A stretch of DNA of 32,778 nt from Candidatus Solincola tengchongensis. Lineage in GTDB: Bacteria; Actinomycetota; Geothermincolia; Geothermincolales; RBG-13-55-18. Positions 13,225-17,850 of the stretch are shown here, piece after piece. The notes beneath the pieces were generated by a model. The model was not told the origin of the DNA. It ran no database searches and worked only from the letters and a program-made list of their open reading frames with translations. The stretch spans positions 1,894 through 34,671 of the forward strand of contig MU158606.1 in NCBI GenBank assembly GCA_015711895.1, written 5' to 3'. Numbering within the stretch: position 1 is the first letter of the stretch; each line of letters begins with the position of its first letter. Made by a program: the position numbers and the translations under genes.

Positions 13225-13755
13225 TCACCCGGCGCATTCGCCGGGGTCGCCGCGGAGCTTGTCCAGCCCGTGGGGGAGGGCGGGAATGATGACCTCCAGG
13301 TTCTCCCTTGCCCCCCGGGGGCTTCCCGGGAGGTTGACGATTAGGGTGGATCCCCGGATGCCGCTCACCGCGCGGCTGAGCATGGCGTGGGGGGTCACCC
13401 GCAGGGAGGCGGCCCGCATGGCCTCCGCGAATCCGGGAGCTTCCCTCTCCACCACCCGGCGCGTGGCCTCGGGGGTCACGTCGCGAGGGCTCATCCCCGT
13501 GCCTCCGGTGGTCAGAACCAGGTCCACGCGCAGGTGATCGCAGAAGTGGCGGAGCCGCTCCTCGATCATCACTGCTTCGTCGGGGACCATCTCCCGCGCC
13601 TCGACCTTCCATCCCTCCCGGAGGACCACTTCCTCCACTGCCCGGCCGGAAAGGTCCTCCCGTTCCCCGGCGGCTCCCTTGTCGCTAACCGTGAGGATGG
13701 CCACCCTGAAGGGACGCCGGGGCGAGTCGGATTCGCCGTTGTGTTTAGGGCTCAC
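13225..13755 (-). CDS. mog: Molybdopterin adenylyltransferase (MogA/MoaB family)
   Basis: ILTVSD, REDLSG, TTGGTG.SPRDVTPEAT, MLSRAVSG and NLPGSP motifs. The GTG start at 13755 overlaps the MOSC stop (GTGA). Confidence 0.92.
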   Translation of the reverse strand: MSPKHNGESDSPRRPFRVAILTVSDKGAAGEREDLSGRAVEEVVLREGWKVEAREMVPDEAVMIEERLRHFCDHLRVDLVLTTGGTGMSPRDVTPEATRRVVEREAPGFAEAMRAASLRVTPHAMLSRAVSGIRGSTLIVNLPGSPRGARENLEVIIPALPHGLDKLRGDPGECAG

Positions 13756-14231
13756 TTCTCCTCCGCTTCCCGATCGCGGGGGCCTTCCTCCAGGACCTCG
13801 ATGCGGTCTCCCGCCTTTGCCGTGCCGCCCTTGAGGACGCGGGCGAAGATGCCCTCCCGCGGCATGATGCAGTCGCCGGCGGCGTAGTAGATGGCGCAGC
13901 GGTCCACGCACTCCTTGCCTATCTGGGTCACCTCGAGGAGGATGTCCTTTCCCACGCGCAGGCGGTCGCCCACCTTCAGGCGGGTCAGTTCCAGGCCCCG
14001 GGTGAGCAGGTTCTCCCCGAAAGCGCCCGGACGCAGGCCCTCGAGTCCCATGGCCCGCATCTTGTCCACGCTCTCCTCCGCCAGCAGGCTCACCTGACGG
14101 TGGCCGAATCCGGCGTGGGCGTCGCCCCGGATGCCCAGGTCCTCCACCAAGAGGACCTCCTCCACCTCCTCCTTCTGGACGTGCTTTTCCGCGCTCACGC
14201 AGACGGCCACCACCTCACCGCTGGTCATCAT
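13752..14231 (-). CDS. MOSC-domain protein
   Basis: GDAHAG..HRQVSLL, PGAFGENL, LEVTQIGKEC and CIMPREGIFARVL.GG motifs. Confidence 0.92.
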   Translation of the reverse strand: MMTSGEVVAVCVSAEKHVQKEEVEEVLLVEDLGIRGDAHAGFGHRQVSLLAEESVDKMRAMGLEGLRPGAFGENLLTRGLELTRLKVGDRLRVGKDILLEVTQIGKECVDRCAIYYAAGDCIMPREGIFARVLKGGTAKAGDRIEVLEEGPRDREAEEK

Positions 14232-14736
14232 CGCCTCCTCTGACGAAGGTCCCCGAGCGCCCTCCCGTCTTCCTCAGGAGCTGCAGGTCGGTCACGGTCA
14301 TGGAGCGGTCCACCGCCTTGCACATGTCGTAGATGGTCAGGGCGGCGACGGCGGCCCCGGTAAGGGCCTCCATCTCCACCCCGGTGCGGTCGCGGGTCCT
14401 CACCGTCACCAGCACGGTTATGGAGGAATCCGGCTCATCGACCCGGAAATCGGTCTCCACCGAGGTGACGGAGATGGGATGGCACATGGGGATGAGCTCC
14501 CCGGCACGTTTGGCGGCCATGATCCCCGCCACTCGCGCCACGGCCAGGACATCGCCCTTCTCCACCTCCCCGGCGACGATGAGCTTCAAGGTGGAGGGTC
14601 TCATCACCACTCTGGCCTGGGCCAGGGCCTCGCGGACGGTTACCGGCTTCCGGCTCACGTCCACCATCCTGGCCCTTCCCCGTTCGTCCAGGTGGGAAAG
14701 GGCATCGGCCGGTTTGCTCTCTTCGATGTCCGACAT
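14215..14736 (-). CDS. moaC: Cyclic pyranopterin monophosphate synthase MoaC
   Basis: LSHLDE.GRARMVDVS.K, KGDVL.VAR.AGIMAAK, LIPMCH, TGVEMEAL, IYDMCKAVD and KTGG.SG motifs. Confidence 0.96.
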   Translation of the reverse strand: MSDIEESKPADALSHLDERGRARMVDVSRKPVTVREALAQARVVMRPSTLKLIVAGEVEKGDVLAVARVAGIMAAKRAGELIPMCHPISVTSVETDFRVDEPDSSITVLVTVRTRDRTGVEMEALTGAAVAALTIYDMCKAVDRSMTVTDLQLLRKTGGRSGTFVRGGDDDQR

Positions 14737-14910: not shown

Positions 14911-15894
14911 TCATCCCCCGATGCGGGACATGTTCGTCTTGGTAAAAGATTCCAGTTTACCGTGGTCATAGGGTTTCTTGTCCAATGCCGTGAGGATGGC
15001 CCGGTAGATCTCCTCCTCGGTTTCCCGGTCGTCCTTTCCGCCCCGCAATATCCCTCTCACGTCCACCTCCTCCGTGGAGAAGAGGCAGGGCTTCATCCTC
15101 CCCTCTGCGGTGAGGCGCAGGCGGTTGCACTCCGGGCAGAAGTGGGAGCTCACAGGGGAGATGAAGCCTACCATCCCCCGCGCCCCGGGCAGCCGGTAAT
15201 AGCGCGCCGGGCCCGCGCCGAGGGGGGAAGGGGCCTCCTCCATGGCCCCGTGGCGCAGCAGGCGAGCTCGGATGACCCGGTTTGAGACGAAGTAGGAGGC
15301 GTCCACGGCCCCGCAAGGGCTCATGTATTCGATGAACCTGACGTGGACCGGCAGCCTGTACACCAGGTCCAGAAAGCCCTCTACCTCGTCGTTCAGGTGC
15401 TTAAGGGTCACCACGTTTATCTTCACCGGGTCCAGCCCGGCCTCCAGGGCCGCCTCCACCCCCTCCAGCGCCGTGGCGAGGTCGCCCCCACGGGTGAGGC
15501 GGCGGTAGGTCTCCGGGTGGAGGGAGTCGATACTCACGTTCACCCTCTTGAGGCCGGCTGCGGCCAGGCTCTCCGCCTTCTTGGCCAGAAGGGTGCCGTT
15601 GGTGGTGAGGGAGATGTCCAGTCGGGGACGCAGGGAGGCGATGCCCCTCACCAGCTCCTCCACGTCCCTGCGTACCAGGGGCTCCCCTCCGGTCAGGCGA
15701 ACCTTGCCGATGCCCGCCCGCAGCGCAACCCGCAGGAAGCGCAGTATCTCCTCGTAGGTGAGGATCTCCGCATGGTCGAGGTGAGGGACGCCCTCGGGGG
15801 GCATGCAATAGATGCAACGCAGGTTGCACCGGTCGGTGACCGCAAGGCGGAGGTAATCGATGCGCCTCGAAAAGCGGTCCACCAGGACTTTCAT
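14911..15894 (-). CDS. moaA: GTP 3',8-cyclase MoaA
   Basis: YLRLAVTDRCNLRCIYCMP, RLTGGEPL, TTNG, RFIEYM, FCPECNRLRLT...KPCLF and C-terminal IGG. Confidence 0.97.
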   Translation of the reverse strand: MKVLVDRFSRRIDYLRLAVTDRCNLRCIYCMPPEGVPHLDHAEILTYEEILRFLRVALRAGIGKVRLTGGEPLVRRDVEELVRGIASLRPRLDISLTTNGTLLAKKAESLAAAGLKRVNVSIDSLHPETYRRLTRGGDLATALEGVEAALEAGLDPVKINVVTLKHLNDEVEGFLDLVYRLPVHVRFIEYMSPCGAVDASYFVSNRVIRARLLRHGAMEEAPSPLGAGPARYYRLPGARGMVGFISPVSSHFCPECNRLRLTAEGRMKPCLFSTEEVDVRGILRGGKDDRETEEEIYRAILTALDKKPYDHGKLESFTKTNMSRIGG

Positions 15895-15948
15895 CTCTAA
15901 GCTCCCTTCCCAGGTGGGGTGGAACCTCGCCGCGGGTTCACCCTCGCC

Positions 15949-16350
15949 TCATTCGGCAAGAAGCGGTTCGATCCGGGCACGTATGGCGTCCTCGGTCTGG
16001 TAACCCACGAGGCGGGAGGCCTCGTTGCCGTCGCGGTCCAGAAAGACGAGGGTGGGCGTGGCCGAGATGTGGTAACCGGAAGCCTTTTCCGTCTCCTCCC
16101 AAACGTTGATCTCAGTGAAGTCCACCCTTCCCGCGTATTCCTCCGCCAGCCGAGCCAGCACGGGCTCGAGTTCCCGGCAGGGTGTTCACCCGGGCTGCCA
16201 GAAGTTCACTACCTGCGGCCTTCCCGCCGCCTTCCCGGGAGCTGGTTCCTTTTCTGTTTTCTCTCCGCATCCCGGGAAAAGCATCAGCGCCGCTATAGCG
16301 AGTATCACCGGCACCACGTACTCTGAAAGCCTGTAGCGCCCGGACATCAT
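15949..16350 (-). CDS. Thioredoxin-like lipoprotein with in-frame UGA (probable selenocysteine, UxxC)
   Basis: ORFs 16186-16428 and 15949-16161 are in the same frame. Read-through gives MMSGRY...LMLFPGC...PQVVNFWQPG-U-TPCRELEPVLARLAEEYAGRVDFTEINV...YHISATPTLVFLDRDGNE..RLVG, a complete Trx fold with cis-Pro TPT. AGGAG RBS. Confidence 0.85.
16143..16180 (-). promoter_or_regulatory. Putative bacterial SECIS hairpin
   Basis: Starts 5 nt after the UGA: lower stem CUGCCGG/CUGGCGG (two G-U pairs), upper stem CGAGCC/GGCUCG and loop CGUGCU with G at position 2; 23 nt separate the UGA from the loop. Confidence 0.6.
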
Positions 16351-16381
16351 AACTCCTGTAATAAAGGGCCGCCTCGCTGCG

Positions 16382-16390
16382 ATTATAGCA
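16382..16390 (-). promoter_or_regulatory. Extended -10 promoter (TGcTATAAT) for the Trx-moaA operon
   Basis: The minus strand reads TGTGCTATAAT ~30 nt upstream of ATG 16350. Confidence 0.6.
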
Positions 16391-16683
16391 CAGAGGATTC
16401 TCAAAGCCGCGTGCCTGTTTCCGCGCATAGTAGTCGCAGAGCGACTTTTAGAACCCCGGTCACCGTCGAGACCGGGGACGAAGCCGCCTTCCGGGCCGCC
16501 GTTTTCACATATTGTGTTACATTTTTTCGAAATGGGACACGAAAAGAGTTCCTGCGTGCTTCTCGGGCCGTGCCTTTTCCGGCCACTCGCGCCTCAAGGC
16601 CGGCCATGAGCCTCCGGTTCCCGCAGGGTGTGTCCGGACCGAACGGTGTCCATCTGCGCGAGAAGCGCTCGACGGAACGGTCA

Positions 16684-17850
16684 TCACAGGAGAACCCTGA
16701 TAAGCATGGCGATCTCCCGGGAGGTGGCGGCGAGGAGCCGATGGGCTTGGCGCAGGGAATCTTCCAGGGAAAGCGGGCCGCCGGCGGTGGAGAACATGGC
16801 CGTCACGCCGCTCTCGTGCAGCTTCTCCGCCCCCGGGGCGAGCTCCCCGGCCAGGGCCAGGACGGGGATGCCTCTATCCGCAGCCCTGCGGGCCACGCCG
16901 TTCACCGTCTTGCCGCGCGCCGTCTGGGCGTCCAGCCTCCCCTCGCCGGTCATCACCAGCCGTGCTGCGGAGAGGAGCTCCTCAAAACCCACCGCCTCCA
17001 TGACCACATCGATGCCCGGTCTTATCTCCGCGCCCAGGAACACGGCAAGACCGAATCCCAGGCCGCCCGCGGCTCCCGCGCCGGGTAAGCCGGCCGGACC
17101 CGCTCCGGGGGTCGGCTCCGCGGGGCGACAGGGCATAGGAACCTGCGCCGAGGCCACCTCCGCCAGCCGGGCCAGCCCCCTTTCCAGGGCCTCCACCTCC
17201 TCCGGACCCGCTCCCTTCTGGGGCGCGTAGACGCGCGAGGCCCCCTCCGGTCCCAGCAGCGGGTTGTCCACGTCGCTGGCCACCACGATCTCCACCTCGC
17301 GCAACCTGGGGTCCAGACCGGAGAGGTCGATGCTTTTCAGGCGATGGAGATACCCGCCTCCGGGAGGGAGTTCCTTGCCCTTGCCGTCCAGGAAACGGGC
17401 ACCGAGGGCGGAAGCCATGCCCGTGCCTCCGTCGTTGGTCCCGCTCCCCCCTATGCCCACGATGATGCGGGTGGCTCCCAGGTCCAGGGCTCCGCGGATG
17501 AGGTCGCCGGTCCCGGCGGTGGTGGTATTCATGGGGTCCCGGCGTTCCGGGGGGATGAGCTGGAGGCCGGAGGCGGCGGCTATCTCCACCACCGCGGTCT
17601 TCCCGTCCCCGCAAAGGCCGAGGGGAGCCCTCCGCTTCTCGCCCAGCGGCCCGGTGACCTCCATCTCCACCAGGCGACCCCCGGTGGCCTTGACCAGGAC
17701 ATCGAGGGTACCCTCCCCGCCGTCGGCCAGCGGACAGAGGACGCATTCCGCCTCCGGCCACCCCTCCAGGAAACCGGCGGCTATGGCCTCGGCCGCCTGG
17801 GACGCGGTGAGGGACCCCTTGAACTTGTCCGGACAGACGAGGACGCGCAT
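16684..17850 (-). CDS. glxK: Glycerate kinase (GlxK/GarK family)
   Basis: PDKFKGSL, PLADGGEGT, GIGGSGTNDGG.G, SDVDNPLLG..GA..VYAPQKGA, GAAGGLG and TGEGRLD.QT..GK motifs. Confidence 0.95.
   Translation of the reverse strand: MRVLVCPDKFKGSLTASQAAEAIAAGFLEGWPEAECVLCPLADGGEGTLDVLVKATGGRLVEMEVTGPLGEKRRAPLGLCGDGKTAVVEIAAASGLQLIPPERRDPMNTTTAGTGDLIRGALDLGATRIIVGIGGSGTNDGGTGMASALGARFLDGKGKELPPGGGYLHRLKSIDLSGLDPRLREVEIVVASDVDNPLLGPEGASRVYAPQKGAGPEEVEALERGLARLAEVASAQVPMPCRPAEPTPGAGPAGLPGAGAAGGLGFGLAVFLGAEIRPGIDVVMEAVGFEELLSAARLVMTGEGRLDAQTARGKTVNGVARRAADRGIPVLALAGELAPGAEKLHESGVTAMFSTAGGPLSLEDSLRQAHRLLAATSREIAMLIRVLL

Follow-up and report, generated by a model that had tools for sequence, protein, structure and literature searches.

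A short gene ahead of a set of molybdenum-cofactor (Moco) genes is interrupted by an in-frame TGA, which raises the questions of whether this codon is read as selenocysteine (Sec), what kind of protein would result, and whether its place in front of moaA couples selenium to cofactor synthesis. The window, that is, the whole stretch of DNA that was analysed, is 32,778 nt long, the gene under study lies on its minus strand, and the genome to which it belongs (G000) is 91% complete. Translation table 11 yields two ORFs here (16428–16186 and 16161–15949); once the TGA is read as U, minus-strand 16350–15949 is one frame of 133 codons, with U55 standing within FWQPG-U-TPC and the terminal stop (15951–15949) likewise being TGA. 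As shown in Table 1, the layout bears out a preliminary description of this DNA, in which two short ORFs were joined across one TGA at the first active-site Cys, followed by a downstream hairpin, with LMLFPG-C as the lipoprotein signal, an extended −10 element and a ribosome-binding site (both visible by eye, the −10 box and GGAG being conserved among congeners), and an end 54 bp before moaA with no obvious terminator. The ORF listed for the MoCF_biosynth gene overlaps the MOSC gene, and its real start is probably further downstream.

Table 1. Features of the thioredoxin–moaA region of the window and the basis on which each was placed.
Feature	Coordinates	Strand	Basis or remark
Sec-thioredoxin lipoprotein gene (predicted)	15949..16350	-	133 codons + TGA stop; ATG 16350 or 16347; frame with TGA = U, PF00085, AlphaFold2, Foldseek
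In-frame UGA, predicted Sec55, first position of U-T-P-C redox motif	16186..16188	-	frame and column comparison across homologues
SECIS-like stem-loop	16140..16182	-	upper stem 16169-16163 / 16156-16150, loop CGUGCU 16162-16157
Putative lipoprotein signal peptide, lipobox F-P-G-C28	16267..16350	-	Cys codon 16269-16267; 15-sequence alignment
Extended -10 promoter element TGcTATAAT	16382..16390	-	by eye; congener conservation
Shine-Dalgarno AGGAG	16354..16358	-	by eye; GGAG kept in congener alignment
Spacer, thioredoxin stop to moaA start, 54 nt	15895..15948	-	consensus terminator absent in scan
moaA (Radical_SAM + Mob_synth_C)	14911..15894	-	Pfam
moaC	14215..14736	-	Pfam
MOSC-domain gene	13752..14231	-	Pfam
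MoCF_biosynth (mog/moaB-type) gene	13225..13911	-	Pfam match, residues 71-214
Glycerate kinase (glyK), upstream syntenic neighbour	16684..17850	-	Pfam Gly_kinase, E = 2e-145

The thioredoxin (Trx) gene upstream of moaA very probably encodes a genuine selenoprotein. The preliminary description had made this reading depend on the presence of selA, selB, selC and selD in the genome, and all four are there: selB (377 bits), selA (608 bits) and selD (385 bits) score above curated cut-offs, tRNA-Sec scores 81.8 bits, and selD, selA, selB and tRNASec are clustered together on contig C211. The selD gene of this genome itself contains one in-frame TGA. Homologues with either TGA or Cys at the Sec position, which had also been called for, exist in both forms. 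An orthologue with one TGA is present in 3/3 congeners (61–69% identity), the codon at this position is TGA in 28/28 inspected TGA-bearing homologues and Cys in six others in the same column, and Cys also stands in the UGA column of P0002, the nearest protein in the database searched, so that the Sec/Cys pairing of a bacterial selenoprotein is observed. Seven further Sec forms were found in metagenome contigs; among the 12 matches of the metagenome pattern scan, four were spurious short frames and one (L144) was a different, longer Sec protein. The in-frame TGA is not an assembly error, since the same codon is found in three other metagenome assemblies and in one RNA-library contig: positions 16186–16188 are unchanged in contigs of runs X2 (another study), X3, X4 and X5, where TGC or TGT had been named as the outcome that would speak against Sec, and the RNA-library contig, from a library that may hold DNA, covers 16105–16288. 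SelB with Sec-tRNA(Sec) would read UGA55 as selenocysteine, the stem-loop beginning about 7 nt past the codon acting as the guide.

The family was followed through 51 genomes of the uncultured Actinomycetota class to which the window belongs, where sf1 denotes the subfamily with FWQPG[U/C]xxC at the glyK–moaA locus and sf2 its sister subfamily. A full-length homologue occurs in 43/51 genomes, with one exported classic-fold Trx per genome; 35 of the 43 have one TGA in the match, six have no stop and two have TAA (G037 and G047), and in G037, the one of this pair that was inspected, the TAA precedes the ORF, which is a Cys form. Within family f1, the FWQPG[U/C]xxC form is held by 9/24 genomes (six TGA and three Cys), and the Sec and Cys forms switch within one genus (G008 versus G012). 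A collection of 5.8 billion proteins contained only three at E <= 1e-10, and a homologue search with the nine closest sequences and a pattern requiring Cys returned Cys forms and ordinary thioredoxins, the nearest relatives being "Actinomycetota bacterium" MAGs. As far as searched, the Trx clade is confined to this one class; the runs that hold the window DNA are labelled hot-springs metagenome.

A stem-loop with a small G-containing apical loop, CGUGCU, lies directly downstream of the UGA; in the minus-strand fold its lower stem pairs 16182–16174 with 16149–16140, its upper stem has 7 bp (−10.7 kcal/mol), and the apical loop begins 24 nt past the UGA. Taken alone, the window hairpin is not beyond chance (z = −1.5; 19/200 shuffles fold equally well), and the single-sequence argument for a SECIS was dropped because synonymous-codon resampling gave no significance (p = 0.18 over 57 nt, p = 0.37 for the core); it is the comparison with relatives alone that lends the hairpin significance. 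The GAGCC-N6-GGCUC core is intact in 4/6 sf1 Sec genomes (G000, G002, G003 and G008) and in 7/7 metagenome sf1 Sec forms, and the weakened hairpin in the two other sf1 Sec orthologues (G001 and G004) counts against the SECIS reading. In sf2, a hairpin of 7 bp with a 5-nt loop is 87.7% paired across 22 Sec genes, both sides are changed in 5/7 pairs, which is compensatory, the covariation score is matched by 0/500 shuffles, and slid controls are 18–60% paired. The best perfect hairpin averages −7.7 kcal/mol in 28 Sec forms versus −3.7 in six Cys forms (one-sided Mann-Whitney p = 0.002, the sequences being phylogenetically non-independent). The Sec forms thus carry a hairpin about 24–28 nt past the UGA with compensatory changes, and the Cys forms are without it.

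On the evidence of profiles and a structural model, the protein is a classic-fold thioredoxin with a UxxC active site. Pfam Thioredoxin (PF00085) matches at E = 5e-17 with 62.1 bits (cut-off 23.5), a PDB profile search reaches thioredoxins down to E = 2e-26, the AlphaFold2 model has pLDDT >= 90 in each 10-residue block over residues 41–133, and the top Foldseek matches are thioredoxins (probability 1.00, rmsd 0.7–1.3 Å). In the model, U55-T-P-C58 lies immediately before helix 56–71, where the redox motif of a thioredoxin is placed, and the cis-Pro TPT motif is conserved, P99 and T100 being invariant positions of (T/V)PT in the alignment. Sec55 would pair with Cys58 as a U-x-x-C selenylsulfide/selenol-thiol redox couple, located at the helix 1 N-cap. 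The TrxA equivalog model TIGR01068 scores 66.4 bits, below its cut-off of 96.8, and NCBIfam gives only a generic thioredoxin model; ResA/TlpA/DsbE models match at E = 6e-6 or weaker, and a separate cytoplasmic TrxA-like gene is found on contig C259 of the same genome.

Export as a lipoprotein is likely. The n-region contains R5 and R7 and is followed by a hydrophobic core and F-P-G-C28; Cys28 is invariant in 15/15 aligned homologues, with Gly or Ser before it as in a lipobox, and lgt (132 bits) and lspA (82 bits) are adjacent on contig C101 of the window's genome. The lipobox of the window copy is non-canonical at −3 and −2, which counts against the lipoprotein reading. After export, Lgt would lipidate Cys28 and LspA would cleave the signal, and the mature Trx would remain anchored on the external side of the cytoplasmic membrane. 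Most likely it would act in the cell envelope as a thiol-disulfide oxidoreductase of general function, with one copy per genome in the class, and such a general role is moderately favoured over a Moco-specific one. CcdA/DsbD (PF02683, PF13386) gave no matches in the 91% complete genome of the window, PF02683 was found in 0/4 genomes of the genus, and VKOR was not found in the window's genome either; the protein would therefore be an exported reductase whose electron supply is not of a recognised kind, and it does not fit the CcdA/DsbD-dependent reductases of the ResA/TlpA/Etrx type.

The neighbouring genes moaA, moaC, MOSC and MoCF_biosynth are co-oriented with the Trx gene. The order glyK-Trx-moaA-moaC was found in 9/9 sf1 loci, from nine genomes (six Sec, three Cys) of five genera, and, wherever the contig allows, in 7/7 metagenome sf1 loci, with a Trx–moaA spacer of −1 to 64 nt across relatives. 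The synteny that the preliminary description wished to see surveyed is therefore real in these nine genomes, but it is not general to the family, at least 20 other members lying beside a different gene: the moaA position is held in 9/43 class genomes with a full-length member and is absent in 26 other loci fetched. In a genome of the same family (G016), a spacer of 235 nt alone separates glyK from moaA and contains neither a Trx gene nor what is left of one, and a Trx remnant near moaA, sought in five other genomes, gave only matches with E >= 1. The element TGTGYTATAATCGCA is identical in 4/4 congeners within an otherwise poorly conserved spacer, and a consensus promoter/terminator scan of 15700–16900 that required a −35 box returned 0 promoters and 0 terminators. 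The fold of the 54-nt spacer is not significant in the window's genome (z = −0.8), and the spacer of congener G002 has a strong, terminator-like hairpin with a U-rich tail (z = −2.0). One RNA-library contig (15878–16108) runs from the 3' end of Trx over the spacer but enters moaA by only 17 nt, contigs being unable to show transcripts. Rfam at gathering thresholds gave nothing in the whole window, the Moco riboswitch included; between 15800 and 16800 there is one chance-level lncRNA match (E = 0.45). In the lineage of the window the Trx gene has ended up between glyK and moaA, with a conserved extended −10 promoter of its own, and it is probably transcribed into moaA. The moaA-side position is a lineage-specific gene order and not a sign of a role in molybdenum-cofactor synthesis.

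Several other readings of the locus have to be weighed against a genuine Sec, a lipid-anchored exported envelope Trx and a lineage-specific position at moaA, which together form the best explanation and are, as a whole, likely to be right. Were the TGA a plain nonsense codon or due to faulty assembly, one would be dealing with a pseudogene or with two short ORFs that have nothing to do with each other; the split frame under table 11, a window hairpin that is not significant by itself and a protein database that holds no full-length Sec form, its sole close full-length protein, P0002 (64% identity), having Cys at the Sec position, would all agree with this. However, the TGA is kept at the identical active-site column in every inspected TGA-bearing homologue and occurs once in the match in 35 class genomes, the protein sequence behind it is conserved through the cis-Pro motif and the C-terminal helix, the Sec machinery is complete, the codon is seen in four independent contig sets and the hairpin covaries, and this explanation, already contradicted by the conservation of the TGA, the machinery, the independent contigs and the covariation, is hardly credible. 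The reading put forward earlier, in which the Sec-Trx is the functional head of the moa operon, so that low selenium would cause termination at UGA55 and polarity and hence less moaA-moaC-MOSC-mog, is quite improbable, and the same holds for the wider proposal that Mo/W-cofactor synthesis, and possibly envelope thiol redox, is coupled to selenium availability. It draws on the co-orientation, the 54-nt distance with consensus terminator absent, the short spacers of relatives, the conserved upstream promoter, the RNA-library contig over the spacer and the order kept in nine genomes and seven metagenome contigs; in addition, four of the five PF00384 molybdopterin-oxidoreductase loci of the window's genome have an in-frame TGA, so most Mo/W enzymes here may also need selenium and a coupling would be biologically sensible. 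Against it, Cys replaces Sec in 3/9 syntenic genomes, in which no selenium dependence would remain, at least 26 other family members lie away from moaA, 20 of them beside a NapH-like gene, G016 does without the Trx, the neighbouring glyK shows the same degree of synteny, which may mean that the order is no more than inherited, a Moco riboswitch or other Rfam element was not found, the spacer of G002 has its terminator-like hairpin, and MoaA and MoaC are proteins of the cytoplasm, whereas the product is predicted to lie outside it. The link in function with Mo/W-cofactor synthesis claimed earlier is not supported, given the 9/43 distribution, the three Cys forms and G016, and the selenium-to-Moco coupling is unsupported, resting at present on gene order alone.

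A further reading concerns the electron supply of the envelope Trx. In organisms without CcdA/DsbD, a conserved NapH-like membrane Fe-S protein may pass cytoplasmic electrons to the exported Sec-Trx as its partner on the outer side, an assignment, including its direction of electron flow, that we consider unlikely on present evidence. The NapH-like protein has four predicted TM helices, Fer4_5 and 2x[4Fe-4S], and five invariant Cys (C36, C42, C45, C52 and C152) in predicted outer loops, the topology being a reading by hand of hydrophobic stretches and charge rather than the output of a prediction tool, which weakens the argument. Its gene is convergent, end to end, with that of the sf2 lipoprotein Trx in 20/26 loci from three families, and convergent in all 19 loci with known coordinates; it is single-copy in 46/51 class genomes (71% identity between G000 and G016), in f4–f6 a second, Cys-less Trx-fold lipoprotein lies directly upstream on the same strand in 7/7 loci examined, and the missing CcdA/DsbD and VKOR of the window's genome would fit. 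On the other side, convergent genes imply no co-transcription, the Trx and NapH-like genes of the window's genome are on different contigs (C93 and C23), a search of that genome for a Trx convergent with its NapH-like gene found none, three sf1 genomes (G004, G005 and G013; 92–97% complete) are without the gene at E <= 1e-40, and nearly every genome of the class has both genes, so that little can be read from their co-occurrence. A complex prediction that paired the natural Cys-form Trx domain from G028 with the NapH-like protein encoded next to it, and not the Sec protein of the window, gave a score of 0.00 (mark 0.32), which speaks neither for nor against a complex. A combined version, in which the lipid-anchored Sec-Trx is the standard envelope oxidoreductase of the class, recharged by the NapH-like protein, and the UGA at the head of the moa genes could also gate Moco by selenium, is less probable still.

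Among known proteins, the lipid- or membrane-anchored Trx-fold proteins on the outer face of the monoderm membrane are similar in outline: Etrx1/Etrx2 of Streptococcus pneumoniae and ResA/StoA of Bacillus are surface-anchored, TlpA/ResA-like Cys proteins fed by CcdA. The window protein differs from them in its Sec active site and in a genome where CcdA/DsbD was not found. The model is also matched by TrxP of Bacteroides fragilis (PDB 3hxs/3hyp) at an rmsd of 1.5 Å over 88–89 columns with 29–30% identity; we take TrxP to be a periplasmic thioredoxin, the PDB title saying only TrxP, in which case both would have the classic Trx fold outside the cytoplasm, with CxxC in TrxP and UxxC in the window protein. 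A Sec-containing thioredoxin (Trx, PF00085, UxxC) is listed among the prokaryotic selenoprotein families in excerpts of two published surveys (PMC1088965, PMC13188914), and to judge from these it shares with the window protein the classic fold, Sec in place of the first Cys of CxxC, a SECIS right after the UGA and coexisting Cys homologues. In contrast to it, the window protein has a lipoprotein signal and a linker of roughly 20 residues and is predicted to be extracytoplasmic, its redox motif is embedded in FWQPG-U-xPC instead of WCGPC, it falls under the NCBIfam thioredoxin cut-off (66 versus 96.8 bits), and its clade, as far as searched, belongs to one uncultured class. The same excerpts list exported UxxC selenoproteins (DsbA-like, DsbG-like, thiol-disulfide isomerase-like (cd02966) and a UGC-containing TlpA family), which are likewise exported or membrane-anchored oxidoreductases with Sec first in the redox motif; DsbA or TlpA/ResA-type selenoproteins have insertions, whereas the window protein is a minimal classic Trx whose best PDB matches are thioredoxins. 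A Sec-containing MoeB (molybdopterin-synthase adenylyltransferase) is listed there too and provides a published link of selenocysteine to molybdenum-cofactor biosynthesis, but it is a Moco enzyme that itself contains Sec, while the window protein is an unrelated exported Trx that merely precedes moaA. With UxxC Trx, exported UxxC selenoproteins and Sec MoeB in print in these excerpts (PMC1088965, PMC13188914), the earlier statement that no such system had been described was too strong for the protein; for the gene arrangement, a full-text literature search combining moaA, thioredoxin and lipoprotein returned no such case in titles and abstract openings. The protein represents a new subfamily within a kind of selenoprotein that was known before, and published supplementary family lists might already include it.

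For the biology of this class, the TGA form in 35/51 genomes, split by gene callers, means that a class-wide selenoprotein is systematically missing from catalogues. Its natural series of Sec/Cys pairs offers material for asking what maintains Sec in an exported thioredoxin, and its SECIS, useful to the same end, shows amino-acid choice bent to preserve an RNA stem. A selenium–Moco coupling would be interesting if true. The recycling of the exported Sec-Trx becomes a testable question, given the NapH-like recurring neighbour and a genome in which CcdA/DsbD and VKOR were not found, and recharging by the NapH-like protein would, if true, be a previously undescribed transmembrane reducing route to an exported selenoprotein.

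Under translation table 11, the region is read as two ORFs on the minus strand, 16428-16186 and 16161-15949; when the TGA is read as selenocysteine (Sec, U), a single frame of 133 residues opens with the ATG at 16350 (or 16347) and closes with the TGA stop codon at 15951-15949. The product begins with MMSGRYRLSEYVVPVILAIAALMLFPG-C28-GEK, a signal peptide with a terminal lipobox. The ATG of moaA (15894) comes 54 nt after the stop codon; moaC and genes with a MOSC and a MoCF_biosynth domain follow moaA on the same strand, and a glycerate kinase gene (glyK) precedes the 133-residue frame by 333 nt, as assigned by Pfam. The preliminary description of one frame across a TGA, with a lipobox, a hairpin and moaA 54 nt on, is therefore confirmed as a sequence observation. 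A consensus promoter and terminator scan of 15700-16900, whose promoter model requires a -35 hexamer, returned 0 promoters and 0 terminators. TGTGYTATAATCGCA, upstream of the thioredoxin (Trx) gene, is the same in 4/4 genomes of the genus, the surrounding spacer being otherwise poorly conserved, and this conservation is good comparative support for a putative promoter of the gene.

Features of the Sec thioredoxin locus, the Sec machinery and the NapH-like loci (first six rows in window positions; G000 is the window's own genome, C numbers are contigs and L numbers fetched loci)
Feature	Location	Strand	Remark
Sec thioredoxin gene	16350-15949	minus	one frame with TGA = U
U55 codon TGA	16188-16186	minus	context NFWQPG-U-TPC
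Extended -10-like element TGcTATAAT	16390-16382	minus	upstream of thioredoxin gene
AGGAG	16358-16354	minus	upstream of thioredoxin gene
Hairpin lower stem	16182-16174 pairs with 16149-16140	minus	RNA fold
Hairpin upper stem	16169-16163 pairs with 16156-16150	minus	RNA fold
selD	G000 C211	minus	385 bits, above curated cut-off; one in-frame TGA in match
selA	G000 C211	minus	608 bits, above curated cut-off
selB	G000 C211	minus	377 bits, above curated cut-off
tRNA-Sec	G000 C211	minus	81.8 bits, above curated cut-off
selD-selA-selB-tRNASec cluster	G000 C211:2234-8138		
NapH-like gene of G000	C23:12315-13148 = L125:1030-1863	minus	
Further NapH-like loci	L031, L033, L034, L036, L106, L108, L110-L115, L117-L124		
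Second Trx-fold lipoprotein	L128-L134	same as NapH-like gene	genomes G031, G033-G038

The codon at 16186-16188 is unchanged in the contigs of three other DNA assemblies, one of them from another study, and of one metatranscriptome library, which argues against an assembly error. The runs holding the window DNA are labelled hot-springs metagenome, and the RNA-library contigs span 16105-16288 and 15878-16108, which shows presence in an RNA library rather than a transcript. Strain variants occur in the signal-peptide region in contigs of two sequencing runs, X3 and X4 (16300 G>C, 16308 C>T and 16322 T>G); despite these nearby SNPs, neither the TGA nor the redox motif differs there. The G000 genome (3.0 Mb, 314 contigs, 91% complete) contains selA, selB, selC and selD and is able to decode Sec. 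SelD is probably also a selenoprotein, since its match holds an in-frame TGA. Similarly, 4/5 PF00384 molybdopterin-oxidoreductase loci of G000 carry one in-frame TGA (C52, C17, C151 and C60; C310 is without a stop), so most of its Mo/W enzymes may be FdhA-type selenoproteins.

The protein matches Pfam Thioredoxin (E = 5e-17), and a profile of nine orthologues retrieves thioredoxins among solved structures with E values down to 2e-26. In the AlphaFold2 model (mean pLDDT 85, each 10-residue block at least 90 over residues 41-133), a signal-peptide helix (12-22) is followed by a linker of low confidence (23-45) and then by a beta-alpha-beta-alpha-beta-beta-alpha thioredoxin core, in which U55 stands directly before helix 56-71. 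Foldseek ranks thioredoxins highest (0.7-1.3 Å rmsd), Bacteroides fragilis TrxP among them, and ResA/TlpA/DsbE models score far lower on the protein than thioredoxin models do. No selenoprotein-specific NCBIfam model scored above cut-off, and the generic thioredoxin equivalog was also below it. The genes lgt and lspA are present in G000 and adjoin each other. We read the product as a classic thioredoxin, predicted to be exported and lipid-anchored.

An orthologue search, by six-frame translation of 40 relatives, found an orthologue with one TGA in all three congeners (61-69% identity); in other genera of the family, TGA is present in G008 and G004, and G012, G013 and G005 have no stop. Two subfamilies can be distinguished by translation: sf1, with FWQPG[U/C]xxC, includes the window gene, and sf2 has mostly FTQPG[U/C]xPC or FTTPTUPAC, the lipobox Cys and the thioredoxin cis-Pro motif being common to both. 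No genome examined contains both, so there appears to be one such lipoprotein thioredoxin per genome. A profile search of the whole class Geothermincolia gave a full-length homologue in 43/51 genomes, with one TGA in the match in 35, no stop in 6 and TAA in 2; the TAA of G037 lies upstream of its ORF, a Cys form, and the other TAA-bearing match is that of G047. Across the 34 sequences inspected, the homologues carry either TGA (28) or the Cys codons TGC/TGT (6) at the Sec column. A degenerate DNA pattern requiring TGA retrieved 12 metagenome stretches, namely seven sf1 Sec forms, one other Sec protein and four spurious hits. The other protein (L144:4282-5280, metagenome contig Ga0316189_10007606) is longer, with a frame of about 330 aa, a Ser/Thr-rich N-terminal region and FWFWQPG-U-PPC; it comes from a different lineage and is a further Sec protein of Trx fold that looks exported. 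A database of 5.8 billion protein sequences offers a single close full-length match, a Cys form with 64% identity, which agrees with the earlier statement that gene callers miss the Sec forms; the closest Cys-form homologues found among named public genomes come from MAGs that bear the labels Actinomycetota bacterium or uncultured actinobacterium.

The RNA fold of 16195-16120 is a stem-loop in two tiers, with the loop CGUGCU starting 24 nt after the UGA. Alone, this hairpin is within chance: z is -1.5, 19/200 shuffles fold equally well, and among 2000 synonymous redraws, with the same peptide and the codon usage of the window itself, the fold is equalled or bettered by 18% over 57 nt and by 37% over the 30-nt core; the peptide LEPVLARL under GC-rich codon usage makes the stem almost unavoidable. 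Evidence for a SECIS must therefore come from comparison. In sf2, the hairpin lies one codon farther from the UGA than in sf1 and has a 5-nt loop (mostly CGUGC) and a 7-bp stem; among 22 sequences, 87.7% of cells are paired and 5/7 pairs show both-sided changes (GC/CG, CG/UA, etc.). None of 500 column shuffles reached the observed covariation score or percentage paired, and sliding the partner by 1-3 columns lowers pairing to 18-60%. Stems are lineage-specific (GAGCC/GGCUC, GCUCU/AGAGC, GCCCU/AGGGC, AGCCCAU/AUGGGCU), while the loop GUG is kept. The sf1 core GAGCC-N6-GGCUC is intact in G000, G002, G003, G008 and 7/7 metagenome sf1 Sec forms and weaker in G001 and G004. None of the three sf1 Cys forms has a similar stem, the codons at the position of the 3' arm being Glu or others. 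Across 28 Sec forms, the best perfect hairpin has a mean of -7.7 kcal/mol, against -3.7 for 6 Cys forms (p = 0.002 in a one-sided Mann-Whitney test, which overstates the case as the sequences are related). As judged by sequence comparison, the SECIS evidence and the Sec/Cys column together suffice by the criteria that bioinformatics normally applies to bacterial selenoproteins, and the window gene very probably encodes a genuine one.

The preliminary description had further proposed that selenium supply, through UGA decoding and possible polarity on the moa genes, would be tied to synthesis of the molybdenum cofactor (Moco). This is an argument from gene position, and we regard it as improbable. 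The order glyK-Trx-moaA-moaC is present in 9/9 sf1 loci from five genera, with Trx-moaA spacers from a 1-nt overlap up to 64 nt, and in seven metagenome sf1 loci wherever the contig reaches; the Sec-dependent appearance of most Mo/W enzymes of G000 makes polarity somewhat more attractive. However, three of the nine loci hold Cys forms, glyK is as syntenic with Trx as moaA is, no Moco riboswitch is present, and in G016, a member of the same family, the 235 nt that separate glyK from moaA contain neither Trx nor a remnant of it. Moreover, moaA occurs in the flanks of 0/26 fetched sf2 loci, so the tie to the Moco genes finds no support in the wider family. The Trx-moaA spacer of the congener G002 (L024:1438-1503) also contains a GC-rich hairpin of 10 bp (z = -2.0) and, after it, a U-rich run (GUUCCUUUCU); these could form a terminator or attenuator, which the window's spacer does not have. 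Most simply, the Trx gene would have entered the interval between glyK and moaA in a single lineage and been retained at that site; its co-transcription with moaA is plausible.

Neither CcdA/DsbD (PF02683, PF13386) nor VKOR (PF07884) was found in G000, and PF02683 is present in 0/4 genomes of the genus; therefore, a NapH-like membrane Fe-S protein is a candidate electron conduit to the lipoprotein thioredoxin. This highly conserved NapH/MauN-type gene (about 280-290 residues, Fer4_5 and 2x[4Fe-4S]) lies end to end with Trx in 20/26 sf2 loci and is single-copy in 46/51 class genomes, and its product is 71% identical between G000 and G016. With the topology deduced by eye from hydrophobic stretches and charge in the alignment, the invariant Cys motifs NCYACP, SCPxG and RLCP look like parts of two outer loops, and two CxxxCP motifs and the ferredoxin domain would lie on the inner side. 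Against a conduit role, the two genes are convergent (19/19 loci with known coordinates), they sit on different contigs in G000, and the NapH-like gene is absent from three sf1 genomes. In families f4-f6, a second Trx-fold lipoprotein is encoded directly upstream of the NapH-like gene in 7/7 loci inspected; it has the cis-Pro motif xMNPT/xMDPT and GKSSKSYETM in place of QPGUxxC, with no redox Cys or Sec, and might serve as an adaptor or as a partner that has lost redox activity. In G000, the region upstream of the NapH-like gene has an ORF of 89 aa, whose one hydrophobic stretch ends in ICLDCIG (L125:1879-2148), and an ORF with a GSCGALTGGC motif (L125:2709-3134), which presumably resembles the C_GCAxxG_C_C family. 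Relatives with CcdA (G008, G023, G027, G034) have a different Trx-like gene about 0.5 kb away or less, the copy on G034:C7 having a TGA.

A full-text literature search combining moaA, thioredoxin, lipoprotein, molybdenum cofactor and operon returned no such arrangement in titles or abstract openings. It has been reported that UxxC thioredoxin was a "known" selenoprotein family already in 2005, when a MoeB with Sec and UxxC selenoproteins resembling DsbA, DsbG and thiol-disulfide isomerase were also described (PMC1088965). Trx PF00085 UxxC is likewise among the entries of a 2026 inventory, along with many Trx-like families, and the strings "lipoprotein", "Actinobacteri" and "Actinomycet" are absent from its text (PMC13188914); lipoprotein selenoproteins as such have been described for the SAO system (bioRxiv 10.1101/2022.07.06.499078). 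The window protein is thus a new class-wide subfamily of an already known kind of selenoprotein, which published supplementary tables may already list. To a specialist, a Sec thioredoxin lipoprotein is unsurprising; the result is solid and useful for genome annotation.
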